Source: Schmidtea polychroa (Eukaryota). Taken from it: a stretch of DNA of 64,000 nt. Every line of letters begins with the position of its first letter. Position 1 is the stretch's first letter. The notes under the pieces are model-generated. The model was not told the DNA's origin. It did not search any database and saw only the letters and a program-made list of their open reading frames with translations. The DNA lies in NCBI GenBank assembly GCA_044892525.1, contig CM097885.1:214148001-214212000 (forward strand), read 5' to 3'. Positions 18,777 to 44,834 of this stretch are shown one piece after another. The position numbers were made by a program, and so were the translations under genes.

Positions 18777-19007
18777 AATCACTCCGGGGCCCGTTAAAAT
18801 TGCGCCCCGCAATTCACATAATATCATACGTTTAAATCATACCTTTTTTCGGCATAACAACTAATTTCACGATCATCATTCACACAAACATAAAATTAAA
18901 ATGACTAAATAATACTTTAATTAAACAGATAAAAGGACAAATATAAGCAAGCAGTGGCCACTTTAGGTGACCGGATTTATACACACAAAGTTTATGAATG
19001 GTCGATG

Positions 19008-19643: not shown

Positions 19644-19698
19644 ACTACTATACGAAAATTTTTATTTACAATTATTTACATTGATCATTCATCTTTAA

Positions 19699-20400
19699 TT
19701 ATTGCCGGGTTTTCTTTTTACGGGTTTTCTCGGATGTTCTCATCACTCTCGTTTCTGCTTTTATTACTCGTTTTCTCCATTCGGGTAGTACTTTTAATTG
19801 TTTGTCTTTTTCGTCTAACTGTTGCTTTAGGGTTATTATTTTTTCTTTTAGTGTTTTTATTTCTTGTGTTGCTCTTTCGAGGTTTTTATGGTTCATTATC
19901 TGTAGAAAATCATTTTCCCTTTCCCCGTCTTCTTCGTTGTCTATTTCCTGGTATTTGTTATTCATTCGTCTCATTATCTCACATTCTTTCTGTTTTCGGT
20001 GTAGTTGGAGTTGTAACTCTTTCAGGCTTTCTTGGTGTTTCCGTGCCTCGGTTTTCCAATAGTCACTAATTACTTCGTCGGCCTTTCGACTGGCCCTCTC
20101 CTGCCATAATTCTTCCGCGATCCTTTCCCAATTTCTCCCTCGCTTTCTTTGCTCGTGAAGCCATTCGTTTTCTTCCTCTACTTCTTTCTTTACTCCTTCT
20201 AACAAGATATATTCTCTTTTCAATACTTTGATCATTTTTCGATTATCTCTCCACCTTTCTACTAATCTTTCGTTTTCCTGTCTCTCTTCTTGTAATTCTT
20301 CCTTGATAGTTTTCTTCCTCTCCACTTCATCAACTTCAATTTCTCCCTCTTCTAACTCGATTATAGATGTTATGATGGGTTGTCCGTTTTCAGTGTTCAT
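19699..20400 (-). CDS. 233-aa coiled-coil protein
   Basis: Long ATG ORF, E/K/R-rich heptads, basic C-terminus; co-oriented in the element's 3' cassette. Confidence 0.8.
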   Translation of the reverse strand: MNTENGQPIITSIIELEEGEIEVDEVERKKTIKEELQEERQENERLVERWRDNRKMIKVLKREYILLEGVKKEVEEENEWLHEQRKRGRNWERIAEELWQERASRKADEVISDYWKTEARKHQESLKELQLQLHRKQKECEIMRRMNNKYQEIDNEEDGERENDFLQIMNHKNLERATQEIKTLKEKIITLKQQLDEKDKQLKVLPEWRKRVIKAETRVMRTSEKTRKKKTRQ

Positions 20401-20574
20401 TTTCTATAATATATACATAATTAATAACTGCGCTACAGTGCGGCTTATACTTATATATTTATATGTTATTTTATAATCAGGGTTACAGTCCCTTTCATAC
20501 TTTTACTGTACCATTAATTTTTTTGGTTGGGATACAGGTCCCGATTTTTATATTTTTTATCTTTCCTTTTATCC

Positions 20575-21612
20575 TTATACAAAGGTCTCTTCCTGGCCTA
20601 CATATCCCTCATCGCTTTCTACTGACGTTTGTAATTGGAGTGCGATGGGATCAAATGGGATGTAGTACCGGGGAATCTGCGCTCTAAGTTCTTGCACTTC
20701 GTCTCTTAGTGCTCTTGACACGTTAAGTTCCTCGTCCAACAGGTATGTTAGATACCTGGTTTCATCGTCTCTTACCTCTATCTGTTTTTCTAGCTCTTCC
20801 GCTTTTTCGCCGTTTTCCCATTTCTTGATCTCTATCTCCAGATTTTTAAGATTTTCGTTATACATTTTCCTTTCGTTTTCTAACTTTTTGTTTTTCCCCG
20901 CCAGTACCATATTTCTCTGCTCCAGAGCTCCTTGGTATCCGTTGACATCTCGTTCTAGTTCTGCGACCTTATTTACCAGTTCCACGAGTCGTCCTGACTG
21001 TTGAAGTATCAGTTCTTCCATTGCGGCATTCTCGTGCTCCCTTATGGAGATTTTCATGGCTAGATGTCTTTCAAATTCCATGGCTTTGGTCTGCCATGTT
21101 TGGCTTCGGGCCGCAATCTTTCTGAGCCGTTTCAGTTCTTCTCTTATGACCAGATTTTCCTCCCATTTGCCTTGTTCGCTTTCGTATTCTAATCTCATAG
21201 GCAATTCTTTCATTTCTTTTTTCATCTCTTTGTTCTGCCGCTTCCAGTTTCGGGCTTCTGCCAATAGGTGATTCATTTTCCTTCCTTCCTTTTGTTTTTC
21301 TGCTTCTCGTTTTGTGTTTTCGTCCGTCAATCGTTTCCGTGCTTCCTGCACTAACTGTTTTAAATAGTGGCTGTGTGCTTCTTGGCGAGTGTTTTCCAAT
21401 GATGCCCACTTAGAGGCTCTTTTGCATGCTTCTGCTTCGGCTCTTAAATTGTTTATTAACCACTGATATTTGTTATTCTCGTATTCCCTGGCCTCTTCGA
21501 GATGGTTGTGGGTCTGGTTCGTCAATTGTAACATTACTTTGACCCATTTTCCCTTATGGATTTTATTGACTTTGGTTTCGTGGTTTGGGGCTTCAGTTCC
21601 TTCTTGTGTCAT
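20575..21612 (-). CDS. 345-aa coiled-coil protein
   Basis: Long ATG ORF, almost entirely predicted helical coiled coil. Confidence 0.82.
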   Translation of the reverse strand: MTQEGTEAPNHETKVNKIHKGKWVKVMLQLTNQTHNHLEEAREYENNKYQWLINNLRAEAEACKRASKWASLENTRQEAHSHYLKQLVQEARKRLTDENTKREAEKQKEGRKMNHLLAEARNWKRQNKEMKKEMKELPMRLEYESEQGKWEENLVIREELKRLRKIAARSQTWQTKAMEFERHLAMKISIREHENAAMEELILQQSGRLVELVNKVAELERDVNGYQGALEQRNMVLAGKNKKLENERKMYNENLKNLEIEIKKWENGEKAEELEKQIEVRDDETRYLTYLLDEELNVSRALRDEVQELRAQIPRYYIPFDPIALQLQTSVESDEGYVGQEETFV

Positions 21613-21831
21613 CCTTGTCTAAATAACGATATCATTAACTTAACGTTGTACGCTTATATCTGGTTTATTATTTATTTATTTTTATAATTCGTTATAGGAG
21701 TTGTTTTAGGAGTTTTTCGCTTAAGTTTACCTTTGGTAGATTTGGGGGGAATTTGCTACACTACTATATAATATTTTACTGGATATATACGCCGATATTT
21801 ACAATTAGTATATACAAAATTATTCGTCTCC

Positions 21832-23220
21832 CTACTCAGTCCTACTCTTCCCATCACGCCTCACCGCTATTTTTATGTATATAGTGTCGTTTCTCGTCAT
21901 GTCTTCTACTTTCCGCTGTAGGATGAAATTTGGTGCTCCAGTTGCTGGTCCTTCTTCTTCCAAGGGCCTTTGGTAACATACGAGGTTTCCCGCTGTATGG
22001 AAACTCTGTTCGTGTATACTTTGATAGTTCATCATTGCAAGGTCTATTTTTGCTTTGAATGGCCATTCTATTAACTCGTCGTATGGCCCTTTGCACATCA
22101 AGAAGAATACTGAGAAATGCGTTCCGTATGCACTTCCATCCCCATTGGGGTATGCTTTCATTTTCATTTTATACCCGTTTTTCCATGAGTAGAATGCTGG
22201 ACTTAGTAATGTTGTATCCTTTCCATTTCTCGCTCTCTGCATCTTCTCTTTTATTCCCGTTATTTTCCATATGTACGGAGCCGTTGGTATTAATTCGTTG
22301 AGGTTTAATTCGCTTACTTTTTGATGTAGTTCTTTCACCATAATATTGCTAGTTTCTACTAGATCTGTCTGTATCTTTGTACTTGTTCTCGCCTCTTCAA
22401 ATGCTTCCTTTTCTTCCAATAGTTCTTTTACCAACGCTTTTAGCGAGACTATTTCTCTTTCTAAGTTTTCGGTTTTCCTTTCGTTTTCCTGTACAACCGT
22501 TGACCATATTTCCGCGTGTGTTGATACGTTTTCTGCTAGGTGTTGGGGTAATTCTCCTCGGTGTAATTGTTTCGGACATCCCCATTTTCCTAGCACACAC
22601 GTTATCTTTTTTCTTTCACACTCTTTTAGATGTTGAGCGAGTTTTATTACTCCGGGTTTATCGCATTTGTTGGGACATTCTCCTCTGAATTCTGCGCACA
22701 CTTTCTCCTCTTGTATGTTGTGATGTTGACTGATTAGTTTCTTCCAGGTGTCGTTTTCTCCGCAATACTCGCATTTCTCTAGTCTTTCTTCGCATCGACT
22801 TTGATGTTCTGCTTCTTCATTGACTTTAATCTCTTCTTGGCAACGTTTGCATTGACTGATTTTATACTCACATTGCTCCGTATGTTGCCTCACTTCCCAT
22901 ATCACTCCTCGCCAATTACATGGGGTGTTTTTACATCCTAGGTTTGCATTCAACATATCTTTTACAGCTGCTTTATCTTCGTTTGTATCTCCCAAACTTG
23001 TTATCATTGTTTCTTTGCATACTGGGCACCATTGTGGTCCCTTCTTTATTATCTCCTCTACACATTCTCTGCACATTCTGCATCCACATCTGGTTTGGTG
23101 AGGTTCTCTTAATAAGCTCTTGCATATTCCACACGTTACATGGTTGTGTATTCGAATTGTGGTGGACTTTCTGATTTGTTCAACAATTTCTCTGAATTCT
23201 TCTCGTTGTCGCTTATCCAT
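21832..23220 (-). CDS. TRAF-family protein (RING, TRAF zinc fingers, coiled coil, MATH), intronless, 462 aa
   Basis: RING CGIC...CGCRMCREC...CPVC; TRAF Zn fingers (C..NTPCNW...H...C); MATH motifs YIWKI, SPAFYS..NGYKMKMKAYPNGDG..GTHFSVF, GPYDELIEWPF. Confidence 0.95.
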   Translation of the reverse strand: MDKRQREEFREIVEQIRKSTTIRIHNHVTCGICKSLLREPHQTRCGCRMCRECVEEIIKKGPQWCPVCKETMITSLGDTNEDKAAVKDMLNANLGCKNTPCNWRGVIWEVRQHTEQCEYKISQCKRCQEEIKVNEEAEHQSRCEERLEKCEYCGENDTWKKLISQHHNIQEEKVCAEFRGECPNKCDKPGVIKLAQHLKECERKKITCVLGKWGCPKQLHRGELPQHLAENVSTHAEIWSTVVQENERKTENLEREIVSLKALVKELLEEKEAFEEARTSTKIQTDLVETSNIMVKELHQKVSELNLNELIPTAPYIWKITGIKEKMQRARNGKDTTLLSPAFYSWKNGYKMKMKAYPNGDGSAYGTHFSVFFLMCKGPYDELIEWPFKAKIDLAMMNYQSIHEQSFHTAGNLVCYQRPLEEEGPATGAPNFILQRKVEDMTRNDTIYIKIAVRRDGKSRTE

Positions 23221-23309
23221 TTCTATAATTATATATATACATATATTCGTTACTGGTACAGTTTCGTATTTTTATTTACATTTATTTACATTGCTATTTT
23301 AGGTTATAT

Positions 23310-23669
23310 TTATTGGCTGGAAGAGTCGGCCTCCTGTCCGCCCTCTTCCCTGTTGGTTAACCATTCTGACCAGTCTTCTATCTCCTCTCGCTCCATCTCT
23401 TCCGCGATTCTTATTAACTCCTCTTCTTGCACCTGGCTGTATCGTGATATTCGGTCTATCTCTCGCTGCATTTGTTCTATTTTCATTCGTTGGTCTTCGA
23501 TTATTCTTACATAATTGAAGCCTTTATTTAAACTTTCGACTAAGCTTCTTTGTACAGCGAGTCCTTGTTCCTGTAAATTCGAAATCACTTGAGTTAACAT
23601 TGCACATTGTTGTTTCCACATCTCCTCGGTTGTTGTACTGTGGTTTACTTCCTCGCCTATTCGCTCCAT
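23310..23669 (-). CDS. ~119-aa coiled-coil acidic protein (ORF track begins at a TTG at 23693; first ATG at 23669)
   Basis: Co-oriented ORF between the polyprotein and TRAF; heptad pattern. Confidence 0.65.
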   Translation of the reverse strand: MERIGEEVNHSTTTEEMWKQQCAMLTQVISNLQEQGLAVQRSLVESLNKGFNYVRIIEDQRMKIEQMQREIDRISRYSQVQEEELIRIAEEMEREEIEDWSEWLTNREEGGQEADSSSQ

Positions 23670-23837
23670 TCTTAATTTATATATACTTTTCAATCCTTAT
23701 CTAATTTTATTTTCATATTAATTATCCCCATCATTATATACTATTGATACCGCGCTTATATAAAAATATAGAATACTGTTATATAAATAAATATTTCCTA
23801 CTTACTTTTTACAATCTATATACAGTCATAATCCTTT

Positions 23838-26800
23838 CTATATACGTGAGCTTGGAGGGCGCTGAGCATTCCAGGCCTCCACCCACTGTTCCTGCTTGAT
23901 ATTACTTGGTCGTTTTACACGATGTTGAAAATTTCTTATTCTGGCCATTTCTAGTTCTCCGTGATGCCGTCTATCTTTGATTATTTTTATTGTCCCCCCC
24001 GTTATGATTAAAAAGGCCCCTGTTATTATTATGCCGCTGATCCACATCATCTGTTTTATGCTTATAATTTCCGCTTTTTCCTTGCTCGTTATTGTTGATA
24101 TTGCTTCTGTGCTTTTTAGATTACCGTCTTTGCCATTTCCTTTCATCATTCCTCGTATTCTTGCTATTTCCTCGTTCATACCTTCCTTTGCCATTTTTTG
24201 TATTTTCTCCATCTCCTCCTCGGATACATAATTGTCTTGATGTTTCTCACTGTTTTTCTTGCGTTTTCCTTGCTCATCTTTTTCATCATCGATTTTTCTT
24301 TTCTTTCCTCTTTTCCCAGGGTATCGTCGACATTCTCTCGCTGTATCTTTTCTCCAGATGCATATTGTGTATTCTTTTGGAGGTTGTTGCTGTATTACAT
24401 ATTGTAGACAGTCTTCACCCGGTCTTAATCTTGCGATGCAGACTTTGTGTTCTTTTCTTGGCTGGAGTTGCGTTATCACTACCTCACCTCCTTTTCCCAG
24501 GTGTACCTCCTTCCCTTTGACTTTCGTTATTCTCTTCCCTTCTCGATTTCGGTATGCTTCTTGTATTCTTACTTCCGTTATTGGTTCTGCATCTTCATTT
24601 TTTAACACTAGTCTCTGATAAGCTCTAGACATACATCTTCCTAATATACACCTTTCTTTTAAATCCCATTCTTCTTTTAGATCCCATTGCTGCTCTTGTA
24701 CTTGTTTTTTCTTTTCTTGTTTTAGTTCTTCCTCTTTGTTGTCCTTATTTTCCGTTTCTTTGGCTTCTTTTATCGTTCTCATTCCTCCCTGGGCTGTTAT
24801 CATTTCCACCATTGTTAGTACGAGTATCATTATCATCATATTTGTCTCCATTTCTTTGTTGGTAAAAAGTAGGCATACCCTCTGTTTTCCACTATTCGTC
24901 TTTTCTTCTTGCTTCATTCGGTTTCTCGGGTTATTTTCCTCTTTTTTCCTACTCGCGTCGTTATTTTCTTGATTATTCTCCTCTGATTTCTCTTTCTCTT
25001 TATTCCCGTTTCGACCTTTTTCATTATTATCGTCGTCTTTATCGTCTTTATCGTCTTTATCTCCCCCGCTATCGTTTAAAATGTCGTCCTCGACATTTAT
25101 ATCATTCAACAATCTGCGGTATGCCGTTAGCACTCTGTTTCTTGCTAATTTTGCTTCGAGTTCGAACTCCTTTCTGCCTGTTGCTACATGTCTCTTTCTA
25201 TTCCATTCTTTCACTAATTCTCTTAATTGTATCCGACGATGTTTCCCGATTCGCTTTTGTTCGTTTAGATTCTGCGTGAATTTGAGATCTTCCCTGTTTA
25301 ATACGATCATTATGATTTTCGGAGTTCCTCCTTTTGTTAGTGTATTTTTAACCATAGCATTTTCTCCGTTTTCGTAGAACTCATTTATGTTTATTGCATA
25401 TTTATTGCTTTGTGGTATTCTCCATGTTAGCAGCAACTTCATGGCTTCTAAGTTCATCCGTATCGTGTTCCATTGGAACTGTGACGTGTTTTTACAGATA
25501 TTTTCTGCCTCAGTTCTTGTAGCATTTTTACAAATGAATCTAATCATTTCCAAGTTTGGTTGTATTGTTGCCCAATCCATGGTAGAATTTCCTTCGTTTG
25601 ATATTTCGTCAAGTCTCGAACCTGATTGATGTAGTATATGTAATGTTTTCGGGTGTATATTTGTTATGGCTGCATACATCATTGCTGTTTCCCCTTGTTC
25701 ATTTTTTGCATTAGATTCTTCTCCGAAGTCTCTAAGGATTCTTATGATGGTTATTGCTCTGTTCTCTTTTGCTGCTAAAATGGCTTGTTGTAATGGTGTT
25801 CTTGAGTCTTTTGTTGGTAAGGTGAATGCTAGTGGTATAAATGTTTTTATTTTTCCTATGTCTAGATTTGTGGTCTGATCTCTTGCGTAGGTGTGTACTG
25901 TCTTGGTTATTTTTGCTAGTATCGCTTCATCGGATAGATCTTGCATTTCTTCAAAGAATACTTCTTTAGCCTTACGTACTACTATCTCTTGGTCGGAGTT
26001 TATTGTCTTTGGTTTACTTGTTGTTGCTATATCGGTTATTGGTTGCTCGACTTGTTCCTCAGACTTTCTTGTTTTTACTTTCTTCATTTTTATCTTTTTC
26101 TTGTTCGAACTGTTAATGCGTTCCTCTGCCGTTAGAACTTGAATAATACTTAGGTAGTTTTCTCGAATGTTGTTCATAGTTTCCATCATATGTAAAACAC
26201 TCACGGTGTCCCAAAATTTTACTTGTACTTTATCGGTAAATTGAGATATAGCTTTTTCGAAGTTGGTAATTCGTTTTCTGATTAGTTGTTCGTCTTTGTG
26301 ATTTGAGAATTTTATGCCTCGTTGTAGTAGTTGATTTGGAATTTCGAATAGGTGATGTCCTCTCATTGCTTCTCTCATCAAGGTATTTTCTCCTTTGGTA
26401 AATGTTTCGTTTATATCCACCATATAATCGTTTTTTATCGGGTTCCTCCATGCAATTAGTATTCCAGTAATTGTTGTTAATTTCTCTTTGATTGCAGTAA
26501 ATAGCCCGTCATACATGTTTCCTATCTCTCTATTATCCTCGTATGATATTAGATCTACTAAGATTATGAAGGCTTCCGTACTTTTCCCTTCGATTGCATG
26601 ATGTAATGCATTTTTCTGGTTGTGATCTTGTGTGGTTATCCTTGACCCAGTTTCAAGTAATGCGATGATAATATCTTTAGCTTTATCCCGATTGGCTGCT
26701 ATCATTAGTGGGGTGTAACCTTGGTTGTTTTCTTGATCTGTCGAAATGTTACAATCGCGAAATGCTTCAATTGTTTCTAATATCTGTTCGTTACTACCCA

Positions 26801-29800
26801 CCTTTAAAAGCTTGTGCAGGGGTGTGTCTCCGTAATGGTCTGTGATCGTGAATAATATAGGCCATTGACTTTTAACTACCCTGAGCAATGGGTGTGTTCT
26901 TTCTCGGTTTGCATAATTTTCGATCATTGTTAGCAGACCTCCCAATATCTCAAAATCTAATCTGTCTTCTGCCCATCCGGGCATTTTAACTTTTACTTCC
27001 TTTATGATTTTCTCGGCTTCTGATGGTTGTAACCCTAATCGATTACCTGTTGGTTCGTTTATTTGCTGTAACATGTTTATTCTATACGTTTGTGATCTTG
27101 TCGTTAGTGTACGTCCTTCTGGCTGACTGGTGGCGGTTTTCGGAATTGGCTTACATCGTGCAACATTTACATATATTGGCCTTGTAAAAGGGTTGTTCAC
27201 TAATCGTACTCTTACATTAGTTTCTCCGACGAATAGAATCTCATACGGCCCTTTACCGTTTCGTTGTAATTTTTTGGTGGTTCCTGGAATTAATTCTGGT
27301 GTTTCAATCATCACCCAATCGCCTGTTTGAAACGTATGCTGTTTGACGTTTTTCTTTCTATCATGTAACTCTTTGTAACTTTCTTGATAAAATTTTATAT
27401 TCAATCCTGCGGTTTCCCAGATTTCCTGCATTCTTTCCTTGAACTTGGTTACATAATCGTCTATTTCCATGTACTGTGATATCGGTGGCTGATATTCTAA
27501 ATCCATTGGCATATTGCATTCTCTGCCGTACATCAACTTGAACGGACTCATCTTTGTGGACGCGTGAATCGACATTCTGTAAGCCATGAGGCATAATTTT
27601 ATATATTCATCCCAGTCTCGTTGATGACGATCGACATAATTTGATAACATTTGAATCAGTGTTCCATTGAATCTTTCTGTCATACCATTAGTTTGTGGAT
27701 GGTACGGTGATGTTCTTAATTTTGCGATCTTGAAGTAGTTGGTGACTTCGCTCATTATTTCGCTCATGAAATTCGTTCCTTGATCCGTCAGTATTTGTTT
27801 CGGCGTTCCATATCGACAACATATTTCCTCTACCAATATTTTTGCGATTGTTCTTGCTTTCTGATCTGCCATTGCGAATGCTTCGGGGAATTTTGTCAAA
27901 TAATCTGTGATTACTAATATATATATATTTCCTCTATCTGATTCTGGTAGTGGACCGACTACGTCCATTGATATCATTGTCATTGGTTCTGCTGGCACTG
28001 GCATTGGCTTTAATGGTGCCTTCCATTTTGTTCCCGTGTTTTTTCTGGTTGCGCAAGTTATGCAATTTTTCACCCATTCCGTTACATCCTCGGTCAATGT
28101 AGGCCAAAAATATTTTTGTTTCATTCGTGCCAACGTCTTTTTAGATGACATATGTCCTCCGAGTCTTCCGTCATGGTATTGTGTTAGTAGATCTTTACGT
28201 CTATTCTCGGGAATGCACATCAGTCTTTTCTCGCCATCCATTATCAATAACCAATCTTTCTCGATAATATATCGATGTCGATGTTTATCCATATGCTCCT
28301 TCAATTTTTGATCTTTCTCATATACCTCTGCTTTCCCTGTTTTCACATATTCAATGATTTGCTTCAACTCTGTATCCTCTTGTTGGTCTTTCCGTAATTG
28401 GCAAAAATCTAAATCTTCTGCTACCATCAGACATATTCGTTGCATTTCGTGATCTACTAAATCTGGAAAGATAAATCTGGACATACAATCCGCATTGGCA
28501 TTCGCTCTTCCCGCTTTGAATTTTATGAACGGTGAATATTCTTGTAACTGCATTGCCCATCGCATCAATCTACTTGAAGCTTCTTTGTGTTGACCAAGCC
28601 ATACTAATGGTTGATGATCCGTGGTGATACATATTTCGTGTCCCCATAACAAATATCGAAAATGTTTAATTGCTTGTATGATTGCTAACGCTTCTCTCTC
28701 GGTTACGGAATAGTTTTTCTCGTGCTTTTTAAACGTTCTACTGTAGTATCCAATCACTCTTTCTTTTCCTTCTTCATCCAGTTGTCCTAATATTGCTCCG
28801 GCTGCATATCCACTTGCATCTGTTGCTAATAGGAACGGTTTCTTGAAATCAGGGTGTACTAGTATTGGGGCTTCAATTAATTTATCTCGCAATGTCTCAA
28901 ACGCTTTTTGTTGTTCTGCACCCCAAATAAATGAAATATCCTTTTTCACTAATTCCTGTATTGGTTTCGCAATACCTGCATAGTTTTTGATGAATTTTCG
29001 ATAATATCCGCATAATCCGAGAAATTCTTGAACTTGGGTGACAGTTTTTGGTGCTGGACATGTTTTTATTTTTTCTATGTTCCTTGGATCTGGTTCTTTG
29101 CCTTTTGCTGACACTATGTGTCCTAAGAACGTAACCTTTTCTTTTGCCCAATCACATTTGGATGGTTTAAGTTTCAGTTTCCATTGTCGTAATCGAACGA
29201 ACACATTTCTGATATCTTCCAAATGTTGTTCGAATGTTGCTGAATATATTAATAAATCATCAATATATACCATACACTGCTTGATCCCGTGTGTGACAAA
29301 ATTCATACATCTCTGGAATGATGCTGGGGCGTTGGTCAGTCCGAACGGCATTTTCCTGAATTGGTATAGATCTCGGCCCAATGTGAATGCTGTTTTCTCT
29401 TTGTCTTCCTCCTTGACTTTGATCTGCCAATATCCGCTTTTCAGATCTAAAGATGTAAAATATGCGGCCCCCTGTAACATAAGTAACATCTCATTGATGT
29501 CTGGTAACGGGTATGTGTCTCTTTTTGTTACTGCATTTAATTTCCGATAATCGATACAGAATCTCTGAGTACCGTCTTTTTTCTTCACCATGACTACTGG
29601 AAATTGCCATGGTGAGCAACTTGGTTCGATCACTTGTGCATCTAGCATTTTTTGTACTTCTGCTTCGGCTATCTCTTTTTGCTTCTCTGCTAGTTTGTAT
29701 GGGCGTAGTGCGATTGGAGTTTCGTCTATTAATGGTATTGCGTGTAATGTAACATCGCATGCTCCCAAATCTAAATCCGAAATTGCGAATATATCTTTAT

Positions 29801-32800: not shown

Positions 32801-35800
32801 CCTCTATATCTCTCAGGGAGTATCTTTCTCCTATTATCGAATTGTCACAGTCGTAAATAGTAAATCCCGCGGCTCCACTGGTGCAGAGCATCCATATCAT
32901 CATGGTCATCATTAGTGAATTAATCGACGCTTTTCTGCTGGCTGGGTCTTTCAATGGCAATTCCCATTCTAGCTCATGTAGTAACTTCTTCAACCGAATT
33001 TGCATTGATCTCTCTTGCTCGTTTTTTCGTGGCGCTTGTATGAGTCTTTTCCACCCACCGGCGCGGATGATATGTGGTTCGATTGTATTTTCAATGATTG
33101 TGACGGTCATTTCTACATGATTTGCGAATTGTTTGTTAGGTATTTTCCTTGCTGCTAATCCCATCAAATTGTACATTAGATACGTTAATACTACTAAATG
33201 ATGTTCGTCGTCGTTTGCGTTTAAAGTTAATTGTTCAATTACTCTTCTTGTCTCTTCCCAATCGGTTTTAGTGGTTTTTGTCTTCTCTTTGATTAATTTC
33301 GGAATTATTCCGGATATTGTATTCCATAGTTGTCTGGCGTCTACGCTTGCTACTTTTCGTTGCCATAACCGTCGCAATTGTGGGTTCGTTATTATTAGCA
33401 TATCTTTTACTAGCTCTCGTATCCATTTTTCGCCTCTTTCGATAGTTGGCTGGGCCTCTTTTAGATCCCACACTATTTTATCCAGTTTCTCTAATCTGAC
33501 TTGTCCTTGTTCTTGTTTCAGTTGTTCTCTAGTTTTAAATTCCGGTTTTTCTCCTTGCTTCTTGGGTCTCCCTTTTGCCCGTTTTTCCATCATTGTTCCG
33601 GCTTCCCTTGTATTTTCATAATTCGGGTTTCTCTCGTTATCCGTTCTTGGCAATGAGCTATCGTTATTTCTTAGCCATTCGTTCCATTCGTCTATTATTT
33701 TGTCCGTTTGACCTTCTGGTGTTGCTTTCGTTGGTCCTTTCTGTCGTTGGAATTGTTCGTCGGTTTCGGTTTCTGTTGTATTATCGATAATCTCCTCGAT
33801 ACTCAGCTTATTTGGCTGCTGATAGCTAGTTGACGGTTGGCTTGTTGTCCATATTTCGGCTCCTGTCGGCCATCTTACCAGAATTGGTGATCTTTCTCCA
33901 GCTCCTTCATCGCTGTCTTCCAATATAATTTCCTCGATTTCCTCGGTTTCATTCGTTTTACTTGCCACTTTGTTAGGGCTTGGTGTACTCAAGCTACCTT
34001 TCGTAGGTTTACTGGATGTGTTCTTCCTTTTAATCGGTTTTCCCAATGTTTCTACCATTGTCAATACATTGATCTCCCCCAATCTCATGGGTGTTATTCC
34101 GACATCTGCATTATCATCCAACGATTTTCCGAATAGTTGTAGGTGAAACGGAGTTTCGTATGCTAATTTCTTTTTTAACTCTCTGATCTTTGTTGTTGGA
34201 TGTACTTCTGTATCCTCAATGCTTTTGTCGGGATACTTGACTCGGATACGATACCTTTCCTGGGTATCTTGTGCCCATTCTTGGTTTCTCCATTTCCTAA
34301 TAATTTGTTCTAGCTGTTCTGGGTACCATTCGTTATATTGTCTGTATTCCTCAATCGCTTTCGCCATTTCTCTTAGATTGTGGATATTCTCTGATGTCTT
34401 TAGGATGATGTTAGCCAATGCTATTACTTGACGTTTTTGATTTTTTGTTCCCGTTGCTAAGATATCACCTAATTGTTTATATCTTTCCTTCTCTTCTCGT
34501 TCTCGAGCTTCCATCGCTTCTTCGCTATCCATATCGGCATATTCGCGTTCTTTCTTTCTCATCGCATGAATATGTCTGGTTTCCGTTTCACTTTCTGATG
34601 TAACATCCGTTTCGCTTCCGTCGTCCGATGTCGATTCTATTTCGTCCTCTTCGTATTTTGGAGGTTCATCTTCCTCTTCTTCTGATTCACTTTCTATCTC
34701 ACCAATGTCTGTTTCCACGAAAATCCCTTTCCTGATTTTCCATTCTTTGTTTTCCGCATTCCACGTCCTTTCCCATGGGGTTCGTCTGCAGGATCTCACA
34801 CTTAGTTTCTTTATTTTTCCTTGAAGCTCTTTTTCTTTTAACCACTGTTGATGAATTTCAATTATCTCTACTGATTTTTGATATAGCGTTTTCATCCTGT
34901 CTCGTATTTCTTTCTGGTATGTTATATCTCTTGTTCGGAATTCGTCCATGGGCAATATTCTGATGATTTGATGATTATCCCACATTCCCATTTCGCTTAG
35001 CGAGGTGTCGTCTTCGGCCCGTAATATTATTTTATCGTACATCATGACTACGTCATCTATCATCCCGTCGCTACTCTCGCTTCGTACTTTTTCCGTTATC
35101 TCTTGGTTTATCTTGGTTACTAAGTCATCTACCGTACTCTGATTACTCATCTTTATTCGTCGTTTCTCCTCGTTTGGTAACCATATGGTTATTTCTAATT
35201 TCTGCGGTTGCGTTTCTTTCAACCTGCCATATTTGTGGATCAAATTTATGGTTCTCCAATCGCTCATCCTGAGCAATTCTGTATCTCGTAATCGGCTCAT
35301 TAGCTCATGCATGTCTGGAGTTCGTCTTGCTATGAGTAAATCCCAGTTATCTTCGACTTGTTCTTGAATTTGTTTGATTAATTTATCTAGATTTCGTCGC
35401 AAGGTGCATTGTTTTATTTGTTCCAGCTTCAGCTTGATGTTAAAATCGTATTCGGCCTTGGCGTCTTTAGCCCATTCGTGAATATTTGCTGGTTGTTTCT
35501 CTTTATACAATTTCAATATTTGAGTTTCTCCTGGCCAGATCAATGCATCTATTAGGTGCATGTCTGGTTTGATTTGTTCTCCTTGATATTGATACAGATA
35601 TTCTTTCTTTCTCGAGCTGCCCAAATGTTCTCTTATCCAATCGAAAAGGTCGTCTGTGACTGCATTTTTTATCCATATTCTCTCGAGTCCTTTACTCGTT
35701 CCGATTTTTATTACATAGCGTGTTGTCTCCGCTTGTTTCATTTTTTCCATATACTTCTTTATTATCACTTTTTCCTCGTTTGGTATTAGGTCTTTTTCGT

Positions 35801-38273
35801 TTCTTTCTAGTTTCATTATCTTTTGTATGAAGCGTCGGTATGGTATGATGTCAATGAATTCCTGGTTTCTTACCACCACTGGAAGTATTTCCTTTACTTG
35901 TTTTATCGCTTCTTCTCTTTCTTTTCTCAATTTCATTTCGATATTCTCGTCTTCGCTTTCGCTTGTCACGTCGCTTTCTCTTTCATCTTCATCTGCTCCA
36001 ATCTTTTCTCTTAGTTGGTCGATATTTTCATTTAACTGTAACATTTCTCCACCAAGGCTACTCACATAATCCTCATCGTCATCTGTTGACAACACCTTCT
36101 TTGTTGTCCTCATCATATTAATTCGTAAATTTCTCATTCTTGGTACTTTCTTTAACTTGTTGTTCTCGAGTATCGTTAGTTCCTCTGAGTCTAATTCTCG
36201 TATCATATTATGCTTTAGATGATTAATCTGTTTTTCATTTTCGTTATTTTCTGCTTCTGCTTCTGTTTTTGTTTGCTCATTTTCTCTTTCGATTTTATCT
36301 TTTATCTTTTTCCAAAATATTTTCTGAATTCTCTGATTTCCTTTTAGTGGTGTTGTTGAATTTTCCTTTTTTGCTGCTGTAATTGTTTCTTTCGGTTTCT
36401 CTGGTTCGCTCATAGGTACAACTCTTGGATTTTTACCGTAATTGTAACAATATTGCTCCTTTATCTCCTTTACCATCCTCATCATATTTATTCGTAGTGG
36501 TTGTTCTTGTCGCTGCTGAATTCGCTCTCTTTTTATCCTTTCTTCTTCAGCTTGTAGTCTTTGCCATTCTTGTGCATGTTGTTGCACTTCATAATTGTTA
36601 AGATTCTCGGTGCTTCTCATCATGCGTATATTCTGGGTTGGTTGTGGTACTTGCTCTTGTCTCGGTCTCATCATTTGTTGCATCATCTGCTTCATTTGTG
36701 AAATTTCTTGCATCACATTCATTTGCTTTCCCTCACTAGGATTACTTTGTCGTTGCGGATTTGGTGCATAGTTATTATTTCGCTGTGGTGGTCGTTGCTG
36801 TTGGCTCCTTTCTCGACAGTCTCTTGAGATATGACCTAGTTGCCCGCAGTTAAAACATCCTCTTGATTGGCATATATTTTCCGTGTGTCCTCGTCGTCCA
36901 CACCTATTGCAATTTGCGTTTCGGTAACAATCTCTATCCCAATGTCCTGGTTTACCGCATGTTCGGCATTGTTTGTTATCGTTTATATTTCGTCGATTAT
37001 TAAAGTTGTTCCCATTGTTTGAGTTGTTGCGTTCACTGTTATTCCCGTTTGATCGTCCTTGTGGTGGTTTGAAAATTTGATGCGCACCTGGTATAAACTG
37101 ATTCATCTTTGGTTCATGATTATTGTTATCTCCATTTTCCGTTTTCACCGCTGCTGTTGCGATTCTTCCCTCCTCTTGCATGACGTTCATTTGTGCTGGG
37201 AGGTGTAGTTCGCATCTTGTGGCCCAATCTATGGCTTCTTCTAGTGTTTTACACATTTGACATCCCACCGAGGCCCTTACCTCTTCTCGGCGTAGTCCTT
37301 CTATGAAGTAACCCATTAAATTTTCCTCCGGCAAGTTTCCGTTCATGGCCTTCTTTGCCAATCTTCGCAATTCACTTGCGTATAACGTAATTGACTCGTT
37401 TGCTCTTTGTTTTCTACTTGCCAGTTCACCTAACGCTTGATTTATTGGTTTGCTGGCTCCGAATGTTTTTCTCAAAAATGTTTTGATGTTTTCCCAATTG
37501 TCTAATTTCGTATTTCTTTCTTTTGCTTCCAGATATACTTCGAGTGCGCTATCGCACAAAAACAGAGGCATTCGTTTACTAATTGCTTCGGGTGTCCATC
37601 CACACACATCGATATAGACTTCAAAGTTGGTTATGAACGTTGCCAACTTGTTCGCATTCCCGTTGAATGGTTCGCCTCTAAATTTTTCCTTATACTCGTC
37701 AGTTTTTACCACATTCATCTTAATTGGTTCTTGAAACTCTATTATTTCTTTTAAATTTTCCAGCGATGTAGCTAAGCTATGGACGGATAATTCTTCTGTT
37801 GACCCGGTTAGGTTGTTGGTTATATCGGATAGACTTTCTCTACTTCTAGATCGGCTGGGCGTATGTCCGGCTGTGGGGTTTTCTTGATCGTATATCGGTG
37901 TTTTGTGGGGTCTTTTTGCTCCTTGTGATATTCCTCTCTGCTGCCTAAATGATCGTCCTCTTTTGAGTTGATCTAATTCGTCTCCTGAAAATAATACGTC
38001 TCCTGGCTTACTTGAAGATCTAAGGTTGGGTTTATCCGTGATTTTCCTTTTACTCTTTTCTGTCTTTTCACGTGGATTTTCTACGGTTAGCGTCTGCTGA
38101 ATTGGTCGAGTTCGGTTTTGATATTGTCTTCCTTTGTGCGGGTTCTGAATTGCTTTTCCTGGGTTGTTTGTATATTCTCTGGATTCCTCTTGAGCTGGTT
38201 CTGAATTGACTTGGTTGGATGGATGTCTACAATGAAAATATGATATCGTGTTGCCTTTGCTTACACGAATCAA
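23838..38273 (-). CDS. Single Gag-Ubl-Bcl2-Env-PR-RT-RH-IN-Ank-TM polyprotein (4,811 open codons; first in-frame ATG at 37718)
   Basis: 14.4-kb frame with no stop; recognisable CCHC, DTG, YIDD, TDAS, HHCC, D-D-E, GPY and ankyrin motifs. Confidence 0.97.
   Translation of the reverse strand: [4811 protein letters not shown]
25540..26845 (-). other. Two clusters of ankyrin repeats (within polyprotein)
   Basis: [67 protein letters not shown]. Confidence 0.88.
27130..28420 (-). other. Integrase (HHCC, DDE, GPY/F) (within polyprotein)
   Basis: YHDGRLGGH...CITC; MDVVGPL...TDQGTNF...ERFNGTL; GPYEI. Confidence 0.97.
28480..29720 (-). other. Reverse transcriptase and RNase H (within polyprotein)
   Basis: RPYKL, [76 protein letters not shown]. 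Confidence 0.98.
30190..30555 (-). other. Aspartic protease (within polyprotein)
   Basis: [23 protein letters not shown] ... CIIGTDLM. Confidence 0.95.
31020..32918 (-). other. Env-like glycoprotein (chuvirus G / gB-type class III fusogen): signal peptide, ~550-aa ectodomain, TM (within polyprotein)
   Basis: Hydrophobic [18 protein letters not shown] then FTIYDC; 14 ectodomain Cys; [53 protein letters not shown]. Confidence 0.8.
33040..33440 (-). other. Bcl-2-like domain (within polyprotein)
   Basis: [16 protein letters not shown] resembles BH2 (HLEPWIQENGGWDTFV) with Bcl-2-like helix spacing upstream; BH1 NWGR is not retained. Confidence 0.55.
34050..35725 (-). other. Three ubiquitin-like domains (~35500-35725, ~34945-35205, ~34050-34260; within polyprotein)
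   Basis: Best copy [46 protein letters not shown] aligns by eye to ubiquitin [44 protein letters not shown]. Confidence 0.6.
36815..37718 (-). other. Gag capsid-like domain plus three CCHC zinc knuckles (within polyprotein)
   Basis: [16 protein letters not shown]...Q..[18 protein letters not shown]...FIEGL; [42 protein letters not shown]. Confidence 0.92.
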
Positions 38274-38939: not shown

Positions 38940-39615
38940 CGACTGGCTGGCACTTTTCAACAGCTCAATCTTCTTCTCCTGACCGGTTGGACTATTCAAC
39001 AACTCGATCTTACGACTGGCTGGCACTATTCAACAGCTCAATCTTCTTCATCTCCGAACTGGCTGGACTTTTCACAGCTCAGTTTTAATTTTTCCTGACC
39101 GGCTGGACTTTTCAACAGCTCGGCCTTAATATCTCCGACTGGCTGGACTTTTCACAGCTCAGTTTTAATTTTTCCTGACCGGCTGGACTTTTCAACAGCT
39201 CGGCCTTAATATCTCCGACTGGCTGGACTTTTCACAGCTCAGTTTTAATTTTTCCTGACCGGCTGGACTTTTCAACAGCTCGGCCTTAATATCTCCGACT
39301 GGCTGGACTTTTCACAGCTCAGTTTTAATTTTTCCTGACCGGCTGGACTTTTCAACAGCTCGGCCTTAATATCTCCGACTGGCTGGACTTTTCACAGCTC
39401 AGTTTTAATTTTTCCTGACCGGCTGGACTTTTCAACAGCTCGGCCTTAATATCTCCGACTGGCTGGACTTTTCACAGCTCAGTTTTAATTTTTCCTGACC
39501 GGCTGGACTTTTCAACAGCTCGGCCTTAATATCTCCGACTGGCTGGACTTTTCACAGCTCAGTTTTAATTTTTCCTGACCGGCTGGACTTTTCAACAGCT
39601 CGGCCTTAATATCTC
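38940..39615. repeat. Tandem array in the element leader: about 7 perfect 80-bp units (two alternating 40-bp subunits, 39061-39615) plus 3 degenerate subunits
   Basis: GGCTGGACTTTTCACAGCTCAGTTTTAATTTTTCCTGACC alternating with GGCTGGACTTTTCAACAGCTCGGCCTTAATATCTCCGACT. Confidence 0.97.
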
Positions 39616-40197
39616 TAAACTCTGCATGCTTCCGTTCCTTTTTGTCTTTATTCTATACTGTCATCTTCCTATTTTTACTTTTATTTGTCGACTTAATCTG
39701 TACCGCTTTGGAAGGTTTCCCCTTTCCCCCCTTGCTTAAAACGCAAAACGATCGCATTGATCCATTTCTGCATTGGTATGGTGATCAGCCATACCGCAGA
39801 AACTTTTCAATATTCGCGATGGTACCTCGCCTTACATCTCTTACTCGGGGTGATCGGTTATCCCCTCCCGAACGGTTTTTCAATTATCGTACCTCCCGAA
39901 GGTGGCTCGGTTTATTCCCCCTTTAATCTTATGTTGGGACTAGCTCCACTTTATGTACTCGATTTAAATTTTAAAATACCCTTTCTTCATGGTGAAAATT
40001 ATGATACAACAGATCAAATTATAGCTTCGCAAAATGAAATAAACACACCAAAATGATTTATTGATTATTCAGTCCATGCTACATATGATATATGATACCC
40101 TTATTAAAATATTAATGAATCAAATCAAAAAAAATTAAAATATTTTAGTTTAATTGTTCAACCATCCAATTTCTCTCACCGAGCGACGATCACGTAC

Positions 40198-40677
40198 CTA
40201 ACTGAAGTAGATTGTGTGCTTCTCTTTTATTACACATGTGCACATAGAACACCGGATTAAACTGGCGGCGCATTCGTCACAATGGCTAAGGTGCCCACAA
40301 GGTAGAATCAGAATTTTGACAGGTCGCATCTTGCAAATGTTACAAGTTCTCAAGGCCGCTGCTTTCTCTACTATTGATGTTCGTATCCGCTGAGACAGAG
40401 TTTTGACTCGTTCGCGTATCCTCACATATTCGATGTTCAGCGCTGGGTCGTCGAGACGTTGCTGAAACCATTGGTAATGAATCGACAAGTCGGTATCGGT
40501 ATTCGTTGATCCTAATCTGTCGGTTAGAAAGTTTTGTTTGGATATCAGCGGTGCGTCGTGGCTTTGTTGTTCTAGCAGTTCTATTTGTTTCAGTTTTTCC
40601 CTTAATGTTTTTATTGAATCATTTTCTATTTCGACGAACCGGCTTAGCTGTTGTAGATGTTGTCTAGCGTCTGACAT
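40198..40677 (-). CDS. 159-aa coiled-coil plus IAP-type C-terminal RING protein (no BIR)
   Basis: CNICKMRPVKILILPCGHLSHCDECAASLIRCSMCTCVIKEKHTIYFS*; RING at the extreme C-terminus ending in an aromatic tail as in IAPs. Confidence 0.88.
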   Translation of the reverse strand: MSDARQHLQQLSRFVEIENDSIKTLREKLKQIELLEQQSHDAPLISKQNFLTDRLGSTNTDTDLSIHYQWFQQRLDDPALNIEYVRIRERVKTLSQRIRTSIVEKAAALRTCNICKMRPVKILILPCGHLSHCDECAASLIRCSMCTCVIKEKHTIYFS

Positions 40678-41129
40678 ATCTAAATGAATGTGTTGTTATT
40701 ATTTGTTCTTACTAGTATTAGCAATAATATTATTACGTTGTATTTAATATTCGTTTCTCTTTTATTTGTTATTGTTTCTAGCTTTCGTATTTTATTTAGT
40801 CTTTTTAACAATCCCCGTCGTATTTTTGACTTTAATCTTTTAATTTTATTGTCATTACTTTCTTTTGTCTCCCCTTTTTAATTTAATAAATTAAAATTAA
40901 ACAAAGTAACTAATTCCCGTTTCCTTCTCTCATCATACTCTATCATATACATTCATACTCATTTAGGTTCATCTTTATTCATACATGCTCTATTTTCAGT
41001 TCGTATCATCATTCTATTGTATTACGATATCGATTCGTTTCAGTCCCGATTCCATTTTTAATCATAATTAATTAAATTGTTAATCTAACACATCATAACA
41101 CAATAATAGGTAATCAACAAATCGAATTC

Positions 41130-41147
41130 ATCCCGGCTGAGCCCCCA
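41130..41147 (-). promoter_or_regulatory. Primer-binding site, tRNA-Pro type, 7 nt inside the 5' LTR end
   Basis: Minus strand TGGGGGCTCAGCCGGGAT; 16/18 identical to the MLV tRNA-Pro PBS TGGGGGCTCGTCCGGGAT. Confidence 0.88.
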
Positions 41148-41694
41148 AAAATCGTGTTGGCGTATGTGGGGGAAAAAAAAATATATAGGCATGATTATCA
41201 TACACATCGGGTGTCATTATTCTACTCAGATCATTCCCTCACGCACTCCAAATGATCATTCGCATATTCCCACATATGAGCCCGTGGTGATGTTCCACGT
41301 TGGTACTGCTCACACGGGTTGGGAAGAGTTAGCAGGTGAGCCCCTGCCTTAGGACTACTCCTAACCCTTTCTCGGTTCGGGTTCTACGGTGCCATAGAAG
41401 GTCTTACCCATTCTTTACGCATCATTCGGTCCGACCCTGGTCCAAAGGGTACGACATTTAAGTTTCTACTATATTTTCGTGATCCTTCTCTCATGCAATT
41501 CAACCGTAGCAAGTCATACATACAATTTACACAATCAAAGAAAAATCGAACAGTTATATTAGAACGGAACATCAAACTACATTCAATATTGTTTAAATAA
41601 ATACAAAAAAACATTAAAGATTAGTCACGAGATAACGTCGCTTCTTCGAGTTCGTTAGTAATAGCAGGGGAATCGAGACCCGAGAGAGAATTGG

Positions 41695-42459
41695 CTACGA
41701 GAATGCTTCTCCTTCTGCGAGCATCTCGTCGATGTCAACGGGCAACCGGCGGTCTTCGAGGAATTTAATACTGCCGGCCGGAACTACCCGGAATACTTCC
41801 TTTGTAGGAATGGAATGGGTAACTGTAATTTCCTTGATAGTTGCTTTGGCCACAGATAACGATGCTTCGAGCGCGGCCATGGCATTTCTACGCTTCTGAT
41901 TTTTTTCAGAACGCGTCAGCCGCTTACGCTTTCGATGGGGAAATGTAGCTTCTGCTGGGGACTGAAGGAGGTGTGGCACGAGTACTGGAGCCAAGATAGG
42001 GTCCGATGAACCGCCAGCCATAGGTCGATGGCCCGAAAGAACTGGGGCGGGAATTGGCGGCATTTGTGGGCCATGCCCTTTACAACTGGATGTTGATGAG
42101 GTTTCAGCTAATTTGTGGTGCATTGGGAACACGTTAGTCCCATCTTGTATCGGGTACTCGCGAACTCGCTTCGCTAGTTCTGATTCGGAATACACCTTGT
42201 GCAGTGCCTCTGATTGGGCCTTTATGGTTAGCCTCTGGCACCTGCTTTCTTCCAGGAGACTGTCACGGCAGTGCTCCAAACGCAGAATCTTGCTCTTCTC
42301 CTCCTTCATTTGTGGTGGGGAGAACCACGTTCCCTCATAGAGGTCAATTCTCTTCTTCAATTCCCCGATGTACAAGTGGAGCTGTGCGATATCGGCATTT
42401 TTATCAGCACAGGAGAAGCAAGGTCTGAGGGTTTTCCCGGAACTGGTTGAGGTATTCAT
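41695..42459 (-). CDS. LTR-encoded 254-aa protein, 5' LTR copy
   Basis: Same protein as 15133..15897; one synonymous substitution noticed (15196 A vs 41758 G). Confidence 0.75.
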   Translation of the reverse strand: MNTSTSSGKTLRPCFSCADKNADIAQLHLYIGELKKRIDLYEGTWFSPPQMKEEKSKILRLEHCRDSLLEESRCQRLTIKAQSEALHKVYSESELAKRVREYPIQDGTNVFPMHHKLAETSSTSSCKGHGPQMPPIPAPVLSGHRPMAGGSSDPILAPVLVPHLLQSPAEATFPHRKRKRLTRSEKNQKRRNAMAALEASLSVAKATIKEITVTHSIPTKEVFRVVPAGSIKFLEDRRLPVDIDEMLAEGEAFS

Positions 42460-44811
42460 CTAAATCGTTAAGGAATTGTTATTTTTAAATTAAAAATTTA
42501 CTGGGGTATTATTCATATTTTCGGAAAACGAAATGTAAGATTTCCCCGACCAAGTTATCCAAGAGTGGCCTACCAATCTACCCCGTCGGCAATTACCCAC
42601 CTTCATACAATCTCAAACATCCAAACTAACCCATGTAATCATTACTACTTTATGAGAAGAAAACGGGATTCATGAAAACAATTCATTATGCTAGCTTTTA
42701 GGTATACTTTTTGGGTTTGACTATCTTCAACTACTGCATGACTGTTACTTCGTTACTATGAACGCTATTATCTTAATTATCGTTATTACATTTTAACAAT
42801 TATATTTTACTCATTTTGCTGCTACGTCGTTAGATTCTACGCGTGCTATATGATGAACGGAAAATCGGCAATTACCGGGACACCCCGTCTTGTATGTAGA
42901 CCCCTCGGGTTTGTAAGAAAATCATAATACCCTCGCTTAAATTGTTATCATGGATTATAATTTAGTTATTTCAATTTAACGCCATAAACATCGTCATAGT
43001 GACGCTTAAATCGGGCGCAGTTATGTGTTCATTTGCTTGTCTATCTATACCGTCAACTATCGACGGGTTCGTTACGATGCATGTTGGTGCATTTAACTAG
43101 CGACTTGCACACTGACACAAAAAATTTCTCGTCGCATCGCCATGTTCTCTGACGCAATCCAGTGGTCTACTAGCCGATACAAGTTTACGACTCTCTCCCT
43201 ATGATTAGGTAATGATGATATCCACATGTGCACTGTGACCTAATCTGAGTGTGATGCATGCGTACATGTGGGCGAGCGATTAATAGAGGTAGAGTTGTAG
43301 AGAGATGCTCTAGTTGAGACGGGTACTCAGTTGGTGTGTCCAAAACTCAAGAAATTCGATTGTGTGGGTGACTTGCGGATTCAGTAGATAAAAATTACTC
43401 TATATTCTGGATTTTCGATATTAGGTCGACTCACGATAAGACCACTCAATACACTCGATCGACTGCCGCCTTCTCAATCAACTCGTTCGATGACTTTATC
43501 AAATTATCAGCCGATTTTCCCCGTCGGAAACTTATCTGGCCATGGGCAACTAATGATTCTCCTATCGCTATTGATATCTTCACTCGGACTCACGGCAAGT
43601 GATTTATTTCCTTATCAAAAAATTTGTTTACTTTCCCCTTTTAGACGAGCCGCTGTCAACGTCAAACCAAACTTTATCAGATATTCAATGTCAAGCTAAA
43701 GTCTAAATTAGTAAATGAATGGGTTTACTCGCTAGTGTCCCGGCAATGTACCTCTCGGGGTTCAATTTTTAAGTGCTTAGCGGATCTTCCAGTGAAAACT
43801 CTAACAATTCATCGCCCATCCCTACTCAGACATCTATCAATATTCGACGGAAAAGCAAATTTTCCTAACAACAACGAACTACTGATCTCAATCCGAAAAA
43901 TTGTCTCCGACTTTGGAAATTTACATTATTTATTCTGGAACTTCAGCGTGACTTCATAAAAGAAAACGAAAGATCCTCTATCAGATCGCGCTCGATGTGA
44001 GAAATTTTACTTTCAACAGTATTCCACCTGCGGAGTCTCCTCACCCCTCATGACCCACCCAAGAAGGCAATCATCTCTGCCGCCGTTCTTGCATCGTCGT
44101 GAGGGACCGTTTGACTCGTCTTTCACAAAATCAACATTTAATATACAATTTATGAATAATAAAATGAATGAATGAATCAAATAGTAGCAAATGAATCAGT
44201 AAAAATAAATGGATCAATAAAGCTCACCCGGCGACCCTATCATTTGGACTCCAAGTATGATGTTATTCATTCCACACAACCGCAGCCTCATCATAACCTT
44301 GGTAGATCTCTCACATGATAAATATCCTTCTCTGCAAATATCACATCCTCATTTTCAGCATCTTCGGGATTTCTTATGAGGGTCAACCTTCCCACTGTTG
44401 TGTTCTCTGCCGTGGTACATTTCCAACTCATCCACATCATACTGGGAGCTCTCAGATGGTACAGTCGCCGGCACCATGAAGAAAAGGCCATTTGTATTTC
44501 AATAAATTTATTTTACGAAATGAGTTTTGTCTTTCATCATTAATAAATTAACTAATACATATAAATCAATCGGCCTACCGATAGTTTCAAAAACTGGAAC
44601 GAAATCGAGTTTAAACTGGTTTCAAATTAATTGAAGGTAAATTCTGAAAATCTCTCGAATTAGCGTTTGCGATTCTAGTCCTGAATTCGGTGAAATATCT
44701 GAAGTCTATGCTCTGTAATCGTGAAAAATTAAAAGTGGTTTTAAGTTTTTCTAAAATTTACCTGTAATCGTGAAAAATTAAAAGTGGTTGTCGTCTAATT
44801 TTTCACGTTAC

Positions 44812-44834
44812 ATATATAGTATTTTTCGTCCAAT
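44812..44834 (-). promoter_or_regulatory. Putative LTR core promoter (ATTGG/CCAAT box plus TATA); copy at 18250..18272
   Basis: CCTGATTGGACGAAAAATACTATATAT; same blocks conserved in the diverged LTR at 57422..57458 (CCTGATTGGA...GACGAAAATACTATAAAT). Confidence 0.6.

Follow-up and report, generated by a model that had tools for sequence, protein, structure and literature searches.

A Burro-type Ty3/gypsy long terminal repeat (LTR) retrotransposon occupies the minus strand of a 64,000-nt stretch of the Schmidtea polychroa genome (GCA_044892525.1, contig CM097885.1, positions 214,148,001 to 214,212,000; hereafter the window). This element likely produces a separate mRNA for each gene, a short, ATG-free leader from its LTR being cis-spliced onto every one of them, and the AG dinucleotides just ahead of its accessory start codons likely being 3′ splice sites; a probability of about 0.7 is assigned to this reading. 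A preliminary description of the window had noted a TAG directly before almost every accessory ATG and had proposed either spliced-leader (SL) trans-splicing of an operon-like RNA or cis-splicing from one LTR donor. The acceptor-like TAG is a real feature of the element. For the open reading frame (ORF) within the LTR (LTR ORF), the cis-splicing half of that alternative is supported by copies that have lost an intron, and nothing was found in support of SL or operon processing. The donor that had been singled out, CAG/GTAAAT between positions 44762 and 44761 (D1; slashes mark candidate splice boundaries), is present as described, but the intron-loss copies use a second donor at 44578 (D2) instead. 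Furthermore, every replication cycle of the element likely restores a mini-intron in the leader. Statements attributed below to papers cited by PMC number hold for the available portions of those texts.

Evidence for splicing onto the LTR ORF is provided by LTRs that lack intron 2, the sequence from D2 to the TAG ahead of this ORF. The genome was searched for LTRs whose promoter is no more than 460 nt from the LTR ORF. Six matches were obtained, five of which join the end of leader exon 2 to the ATG of the LTR ORF; these five LTRs represent four elements from four subfamilies, and the sixth match (L146) is an unrelated rearrangement. Set beside intron-bearing siblings, the joins are exact: TTGAG/ATG in L143 against TTGAG/GTATGT in L147 and ttctag/ATG in L148; TTTG/ATG in L145 against TTG/GTAAGT in L151 and ttatag/ATG in L152; and, on the donor side, ATTACA/ATG in L144 against ATTACA/GTAAGT in L149. 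In the remaining element, intron 2 is absent from both LTRs (L063 and L083), with one differing base at the join. Microhomology with AG cannot explain the L144 join because the exon ends in ACA. The four donor-to-AG deletions are best read as reverse-transcribed spliced RNA, and these DNA sequences indicate that the LTR ORF would be cis-spliced from the element's own D2 to its TAG/ATG. Intron-2-less LTRs lose AATAAA, which would explain their rarity.

The order of elements in the LTR is a CCAAT box, a TATA box, 29 nt, a 28-nt exon 1 (X1) ending CAG/GTAAA, a 49-nt GT-AG stretch (the mini-intron), a 134-nt exon 2, D2, and AATAAA, and this layout is conserved across subfamilies that are only ~65–75% alike there. 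The mini-intron ranges from 43 to 52 nt among LTRs, D1 is retained in 18 of 19 alignment-mapped LTRs, and 497 places fit a pattern of promoter boxes followed by the donor. D2 is present in 29 distinct LTRs, in all of which exon 2 (119–203 nt) is free of ATG and AATAAA follows D2 by 49–105 nt (29/29 against 3.3 expected). Because AATAAA lies downstream of D2, both donors are likely within the repeated (R) region, upstream of the poly(A) signal; conserved donors near the RNA 5′ end are likewise a mark of complex-retrovirus expression. D1 itself pairs best with a local acceptor at 44713, 49 nt on.

The minus-strand contexts reported for the seven accessory ATGs are correct, namely gatttag/ATG (42459), catttag/atATG (40677), attatag/aaATG (23220), tatttag/acaaggATG (21612), attatag/aaaATG (20400), cgtatag/tag/tATG (19643), and, for the seventh, attaag/aATG (23669); TAG lies 0–6 nt ahead of six of the seven, and the five 3′ ORFs are separated by short spacers of 168, 89, 219, 174, and 55 nt, also as noted. 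The suggested comparison with shuffled sequence was carried out on each upstream stretch and yielded per-site p values of 0.10–0.18, with P(at least 6 of 7) ~3e-5 for TAG and ~2e-4 when YAG (Y, pyrimidine) is counted; among 136 other ATGs in non-coding sequence, YAG precedes 31, and among 169 internal Met codons, 33. The TAG pattern was spotted post hoc, so its independent repeat in a second Burro family weighs more. This family of the same genome (L048–L058) looks unrelated, with a frame of 4791 amino acids (aa) that contains MATH and a separate BIR ORF; YAG precedes six of its seven accessory ATGs and AAG the seventh (shuffle P ~3e-4), and TAG is replaced by CAG at the BIR ORF in one copy. 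In a smaller gag-env-pol family, ttgtag, ttttag, or tttcag stands 2–8 nt ahead of the single 3′ ORF.

The AG sites persist in diverged copies of the element with TAG/CAG swaps and free flanks, which was a further check proposed at the outset. Mapped copies comprise 20 spanning 75–99% identity (20 of 40 listed), 1 extra, and 9 close copies, unmapped rows being omitted; the 29 closest copies are 97–99% alike and too similar to inform, and nine of them are retained in the counts. YAG is present at the RING ORF in 21/21 copies (CAG in two), at the 345-aa ORF in 28/28 (TAG 15, CAG 13), at the 211-aa ORF in 19/19 correctly mapped rows, 1–4 nt ahead of the ATG (six further rows mis-mapped, five without a hit), and at the LTR ORF in 17/19 (one mis-mapped, one intron-less). 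TAG is invariant at the TRAF-like ORF (29/29) and at the 233-aa ORF (27/27, 2 or 3 nt from the ATG), and the AAG at 23671 before the 119-aa ORF is retained in 28/28. Counts at the 3′ sites are not independent, as many 3′ copies are 94–99% alike; the LTR ORF site is the best conservation test because YAG always closes an upstream stretch that is unalignable between subfamilies. The offset from AG to ATG differs among copies (0/1, 2/3, 5/6 nt), and therefore no upstream AUG frame is conserved. These counts and the shuffles place a putative acceptor before each accessory ORF, as in complex retroviruses. It is very improbable that TAG is instead a translation feature, i.e., a stop or context word aiding re-initiation on one long RNA, or a coincidence in AT-rich DNA: the background is ~20% per ATG and TAG would be an in-frame stop at offsets 0, 3, and 6, but the TAG-to-CAG swaps at four sites keep YAG rather than a stop, two families give joint P values of 1e-4 to 1e-5, and deletions beginning at a donor stop precisely at one of the AG sites.

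The mini-intron ends in a copy of the exon that precedes it. Its last 24–28 nt (X2) repeat X1, in the window copy exactly and over 28 nt. In a sample of 84 LTR rows, 66 of them distinct, with 40 chosen by hand for variety among the first 100 of the 497 matches to a pattern that required the donor, X1 and X2 are identical over at least 22 nt in 55 of the 66 distinct LTRs; nine more differ by about one base and two are diverged (by eye). The identity begins 27–33 nt past TATA and ends at AG/GT. There are 37 different X1 words, X1 and X2 taken from different LTRs match in 4 of 1332 pairs, and a YTRAY branch-like word lies within X2 in 26 of the 37. Identity within LTRs and divergence between them is consistent with removal of the mini-intron from the genomic RNA and its restoration during strand transfer, and strand transfer through R is a standard step of reverse transcription (PMC12789967). 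Briefly, splicing would remove the mini-intron at the genomic RNA 5′ end, the first complementary DNA, ending in exon 1, would land on X2 of the unspliced 3′ end, and the new LTR would regain the intron, with X2 rewritten from X1 in every cycle. If the RNA were unspliced, slippage alone would maintain the likeness of X1 and X2, and it should leave triplicated X units; none was seen in 89 LTR rows. The mini-intron is still present in three of the four intron-2-less elements. Rebuilding would predict this, although a mini-intron that is never spliced would give the same picture. Thirty-four places lack a donor after X1, against 497 with one; splicing, slippage, or point changes may account for them. 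A fuller proposal is rated at slightly better than even odds: the element may carry in R an intron that renews itself. Its genomic RNA would always be 5′-spliced, and reverse transcription would rebuild the intron while a copy of exon 1 replaces the acceptor. One 25-nt word would then act at once as start site, as first exon, as branch point, and as acceptor, and the same leader would feed at least eight acceptors over 25 kb, a complex-virus splicing programme in a transposon. Partial extra copies of the X word stand just past X2 in L072, L075, L109, L126, and L143, possibly as relics of shifted strand transfers.

For the polyprotein, the AG abutting the first ATG (37719) was considered as an acceptor and rejected, since it is retained in 2 of 21 mapped copies only. 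A conserved acceptor-like site lies 508 nt upstream, at 38227, with TAG in 22/22 mapped copies; the 508–683 nt past it are without an interior ATG in 20 of the 22 (shuffle P 8e-4), and the preceding 1971 nt contain 27 ATGs. The Gag frame is open for ~185 codons upstream of the first ATG (37719–38270), and the last 85–90 of these codons look protein-coding across copies; in the 44 codons just upstream of the ATG, variation is mostly third-position (21, 44, 99). In several copies an ACG near 38040 stands in good start context, and a phase-1 acceptor-like site at 37985 lies 27 nt past a GTAAG(C/T) donor-like site at 38011, both in 16/16. An AUG supplied by an SL was rejected as the start of the Gag extension, because phase 0 from 38227 meets a stop after 24–52 codons in most copies. 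In the second Burro family, GTAAGC, GTGAGT, GTAAGT, or GTAAGG donors are found ~45–60 nt past the predicted start in 6/6 LTRs. Its leader exon contains ATGCCA in 6/6 LTRs, with the frame to the donor open, in phase 1, in 4/6 (by eye), and its Gag is open for 103 codons upstream of the first ATG; the leader of this family may supply the Gag start.

The proposed expression model starts from what is visible in the sequence, i.e., TATA, exon 1, a GT-AG intron of 43–52 nt, an ATG-free exon 2, D2, and AATAAA in the LTR. Splicing would join D2 to the LTR ORF acceptor, as the DNA fossils in four elements suggest, and the acceptors of RING, Gag, and the five 3′ ORFs would receive the same leader, with introns as long as 25 kb removed. 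Donor-bound U1 mutes the 5′ poly(A) site in complex retroviruses (PMC12789967, PMC3185757), and, by analogy with human immunodeficiency virus 1 (HIV-1) and foamy virus, D2-bound U1 would mute the AATAAA of the 5′ LTR.

Several observations weigh against this model. Fossils are found at one of the seven sites only, and a genome search for a fossil join of leader to RING found none; none is expected, because such RNA would be without the primer site. Site 23671 is AAG and not YAG, 3 of the 8 window acceptors fit UUNYAG (by eye), and neither a start codon nor a donor exon was found for the upstream Gag extension. The second Burro family is without the X1/X2 repeat and has a conserved ATG in its leader. 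Loss of the mini-intron is in itself no proof of splicing because repeat slippage can produce it too. When three guessed-RNA runs (contigs of uncertain type) and one control were compared with positions 14400–24900, no junction or loose end at the acceptors was found among the matches listed. Finally, AATAAA is present in four of the five 3′ spacers and TGTAAATA in three of the five, which would suit operon-like cleavage. In the same runs of uncertain type and over the same positions, no host SL loose end was found at the acceptors among the matches listed; joints near 19680 and 23300 were discounted, as they occur in the control too and match a spacer repeat, and a poly(T) loose end at 24088 was not used, as it precedes an A-rich stretch.

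These spacer signals belong to a hybrid operon, in which the LTR ORF would be cis-spliced while the five 3′ ORFs would be freed by cleavage in the spacers and host SL trans-splicing, a route that RING and Gag might share. SL trans-splicing exists in planarians (PMC10899757), flatworm acceptors are often common to cis- and trans-splicing (PMC12582326), and SL use needs only an acceptor without an upstream donor (PMC8629364). The ORFs lie on one strand with spacers of 55–219 nt, within the operon range of up to 300 nt, AATAAA also occurs in four of the five spacers of the second family, where TGTAAATA recurs, and cis-splicing would have to cover long distances. The hybrid operon is nevertheless considered unlikely. 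Short spacers and an acceptor near the start codon are indeed shared with flatworm SL operons (PMC12582326, PMC8629364), but acceptors in such operons would be expected to lack an upstream cis donor, and here two conserved cis donors and an ATG-free, element-encoded leader exist, D2 being the partner in all intron-loss copies and in the sole junction recovered, the DNA fossil at the LTR ORF acceptor. Planarian SLs end in ATG. The SLs of parasitic flatworms do so as well (PMC12582326). With such an SL, 7 of 14 offsets would be out of frame, and offsets vary among copies. Furthermore, one spacer is without AATAAA, and in the others it lies 23–68 nt from the ATG in A-rich DNA. The TGTAAATA word is often doubled and overlaps AATAAA (3/5 spacers here, 4/5 in the second family). 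Interpretation of TGTAAATAAA as UGUA plus AAUAAA is weakened, since planarian poly(A) signals are reported to lack UGUA upstream (PMC5068929).

An internal promoter for each accessory ORF, with the AG as part of an initiator or of a short intron in the 5′ untranslated region, is distinctly improbable. Foamy virus drives accessory genes from an internal promoter, TATA-like words occur in four of the five 3′ spacers, and TGTAAATA, found in both families, might bind a factor or act as a local donor. However, the TATA-like words stand 12–177 nt from the ATG without fixed spacing and are missing for three ORFs and from all 7 stretches of the second family, whereas the LTR keeps 29–30 nt, and internal promoters cannot explain the intron-loss copies.

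In errantivirus env and the adenovirus major-late unit, the acceptor just ahead of the start codon(s) receives a non-coding leader by splicing; errantiviruses make one such spliced message, and adenovirus is a DNA virus without reverse transcription. Burro elements and the leader-to-acceptor splicing of complex retroviruses are already known. The proposed leader splicing resembles that of HIV-1, human T-cell leukemia virus 1 (HTLV-1), and foamy virus in its 5′ donor(s), which lie inside R in foamy virus, and in having one acceptor per downstream gene (PMC12789967, PMC3185757). Unlike these viruses, it belongs to a Ty3/gypsy element, three times as long, with at least eight acceptors and one accessory ORF inside the unique 5′ (U5) region; its genomic RNA itself appears to be spliced, the intron being restored at reverse transcription; and no Rev/Rex-like factor was identified with Pfam, three ORFs of the element being without a match. 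In the literature searched, which did not cover the original Burro description, neither splicing in Burro nor the restoration of an LTR intron during reverse transcription was described. An intron that is spliced from the genomic RNA should disappear from a retroelement. If the proposal is true, one kept through strand-transfer rebuilding, with its record in hundreds of LTRs, would clearly break this rule, and the rebuilt intron would be a natural marker of the start site and the transfer step. The map of leader and acceptors addresses how the largest known LTR elements express TRAF, RING, and inhibitor-of-apoptosis-like cargo and gives exact junctions to seek in existing planarian long-read and piwi-knockdown data; RNA interference of smedwi-2 raises Burro-1 RNA (PMC8532177).

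Assignment to Burro/GYPSM1, the giant gypsy-like elements of planarians, follows PMC6431247, and the features are listed in Table 1. The element shares with them a length above 30 kb (30,746 bp, with multi-kb LTRs of 4184 bp), one huge ORF, an env-like fusion domain between gag and protease-reverse transcriptase-RNase H-integrase in that single ORF, ankyrin repeats (PF12796, in the polyprotein), TRAF/MATH (PF21355/PF22486, in the 462-aa ORF), and accessory ORFs. Pfam domains of the polyprotein follow the order PF03732 (51–144), PF24664 (1869–2208), PF00077 (2398–2489), PF00078, PF17917, and PF00665. Unlike the Burro-1/GYPSM1 subtype as described there, MATH is in a separate downstream ORF and not in the polyprotein, and BIR was not found in the element with Pfam. 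The available text of PMC6431247 does not mention accessory-ORF expression, splice sites, or an intron in the LTR. The two LTRs differ at a single internal mismatch and are flanked by a 4-bp target duplication, CCAA.

Table 1. Features of the Burro-type element, in window coordinates.
Feature	Positions	Strand	Details
Burro-type Ty3/gypsy LTR retrotransposon	14593-45338	minus	30,746 bp
5′ LTR	41155..45338	minus	4184 bp, TGTTG...CCAACA
Likely LTR promoter	44811..44835	minus	inverted CCAAT box (GATTGG) and TATA box
Leader exon 1 (X1)	44762..44789	minus	28 nt, without ATG; begins 29 nt past TATA
Mini-intron	44713..44761	minus	GT..AG, 49 nt, donor D1; final 28 nt are X2 (44713-44740)
Leader exon 2	44579..44712	minus	134 nt, without ATG
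Intron 2	42460..44578	minus	2119 nt, from donor D2 (CG/GTAGGC) to the TAG ahead of the LTR ORF
Likely LTR poly(A) signal	44507..44512	minus	AATAAA, 66 nt past D2
LTR ORF	41695..42459	minus	254 aa, without Pfam match; TAG abuts ATG
Primer-binding-site-like stretch	41131..41147	minus	past the 5′ LTR; possibly tRNA-Pro-like
RING ORF	40198..40682	minus	159 aa, PF13920; acceptor end 40680
Acceptor-like site and ATG-free stretch	37719..38229	minus	cattgtag/ end 38227, then 508 nt without ATG to the first Met of the polyprotein
Polyprotein	23838..37718	minus	4626 aa; Gag, CCHC, fusion glycoprotein, protease, reverse transcriptase, RNase H, integrase, ankyrin repeats
119-aa ORF	23310..23673	minus	TAAG/ end 23671 (AAG type)
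TRAF-like ORF	21832..23225	minus	462 aa; RING, zinc fingers, MATH; acceptor end 23223
345-aa ORF	20575..21621	minus	acceptor end 21619
233-aa ORF	19699..20406	minus	acceptor end 20404
211-aa ORF	19008..19650	minus	tandem TAG-TAG acceptor, end 19648 or 19645
3′ LTR	14593..18776	minus	same leader, mini-intron, and LTR ORF (15133-15897)

No Rfam match was found within 37000–46000, and no relatives were found among the viral contigs searched. As the LTR ORF (254 aa; 15133–15897 and 41695–42459) lies within the LTR, a solo LTR would hold the promoter, the leader, and a whole gene. An 80-nt tandem array of at least seven near-identical units lies between RING and Gag (38937–39697), and the unit count differs among copies. 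Copies L006–L009 and L002–L005 have 3′ ORFs that are 99% alike and LTR subtypes that differ, pointing to recombination between subfamilies. Single-frame TRAF-like ORFs of 442–456 aa (L059–L061) lie outside any element in the stretches examined and may be host relatives of the element TRAF. In smaller gypsy families (L033/L034, L037/L038, L041/L042, L011–L025), env is likewise in frame between gag and pol, in frames of 3334 and 3437 aa; their LTRs are 0.9 kb, they have at most one 3′ ORF, and the LTR of the 3437-aa family has GTGAGT followed ~45 nt later by AATAAA.

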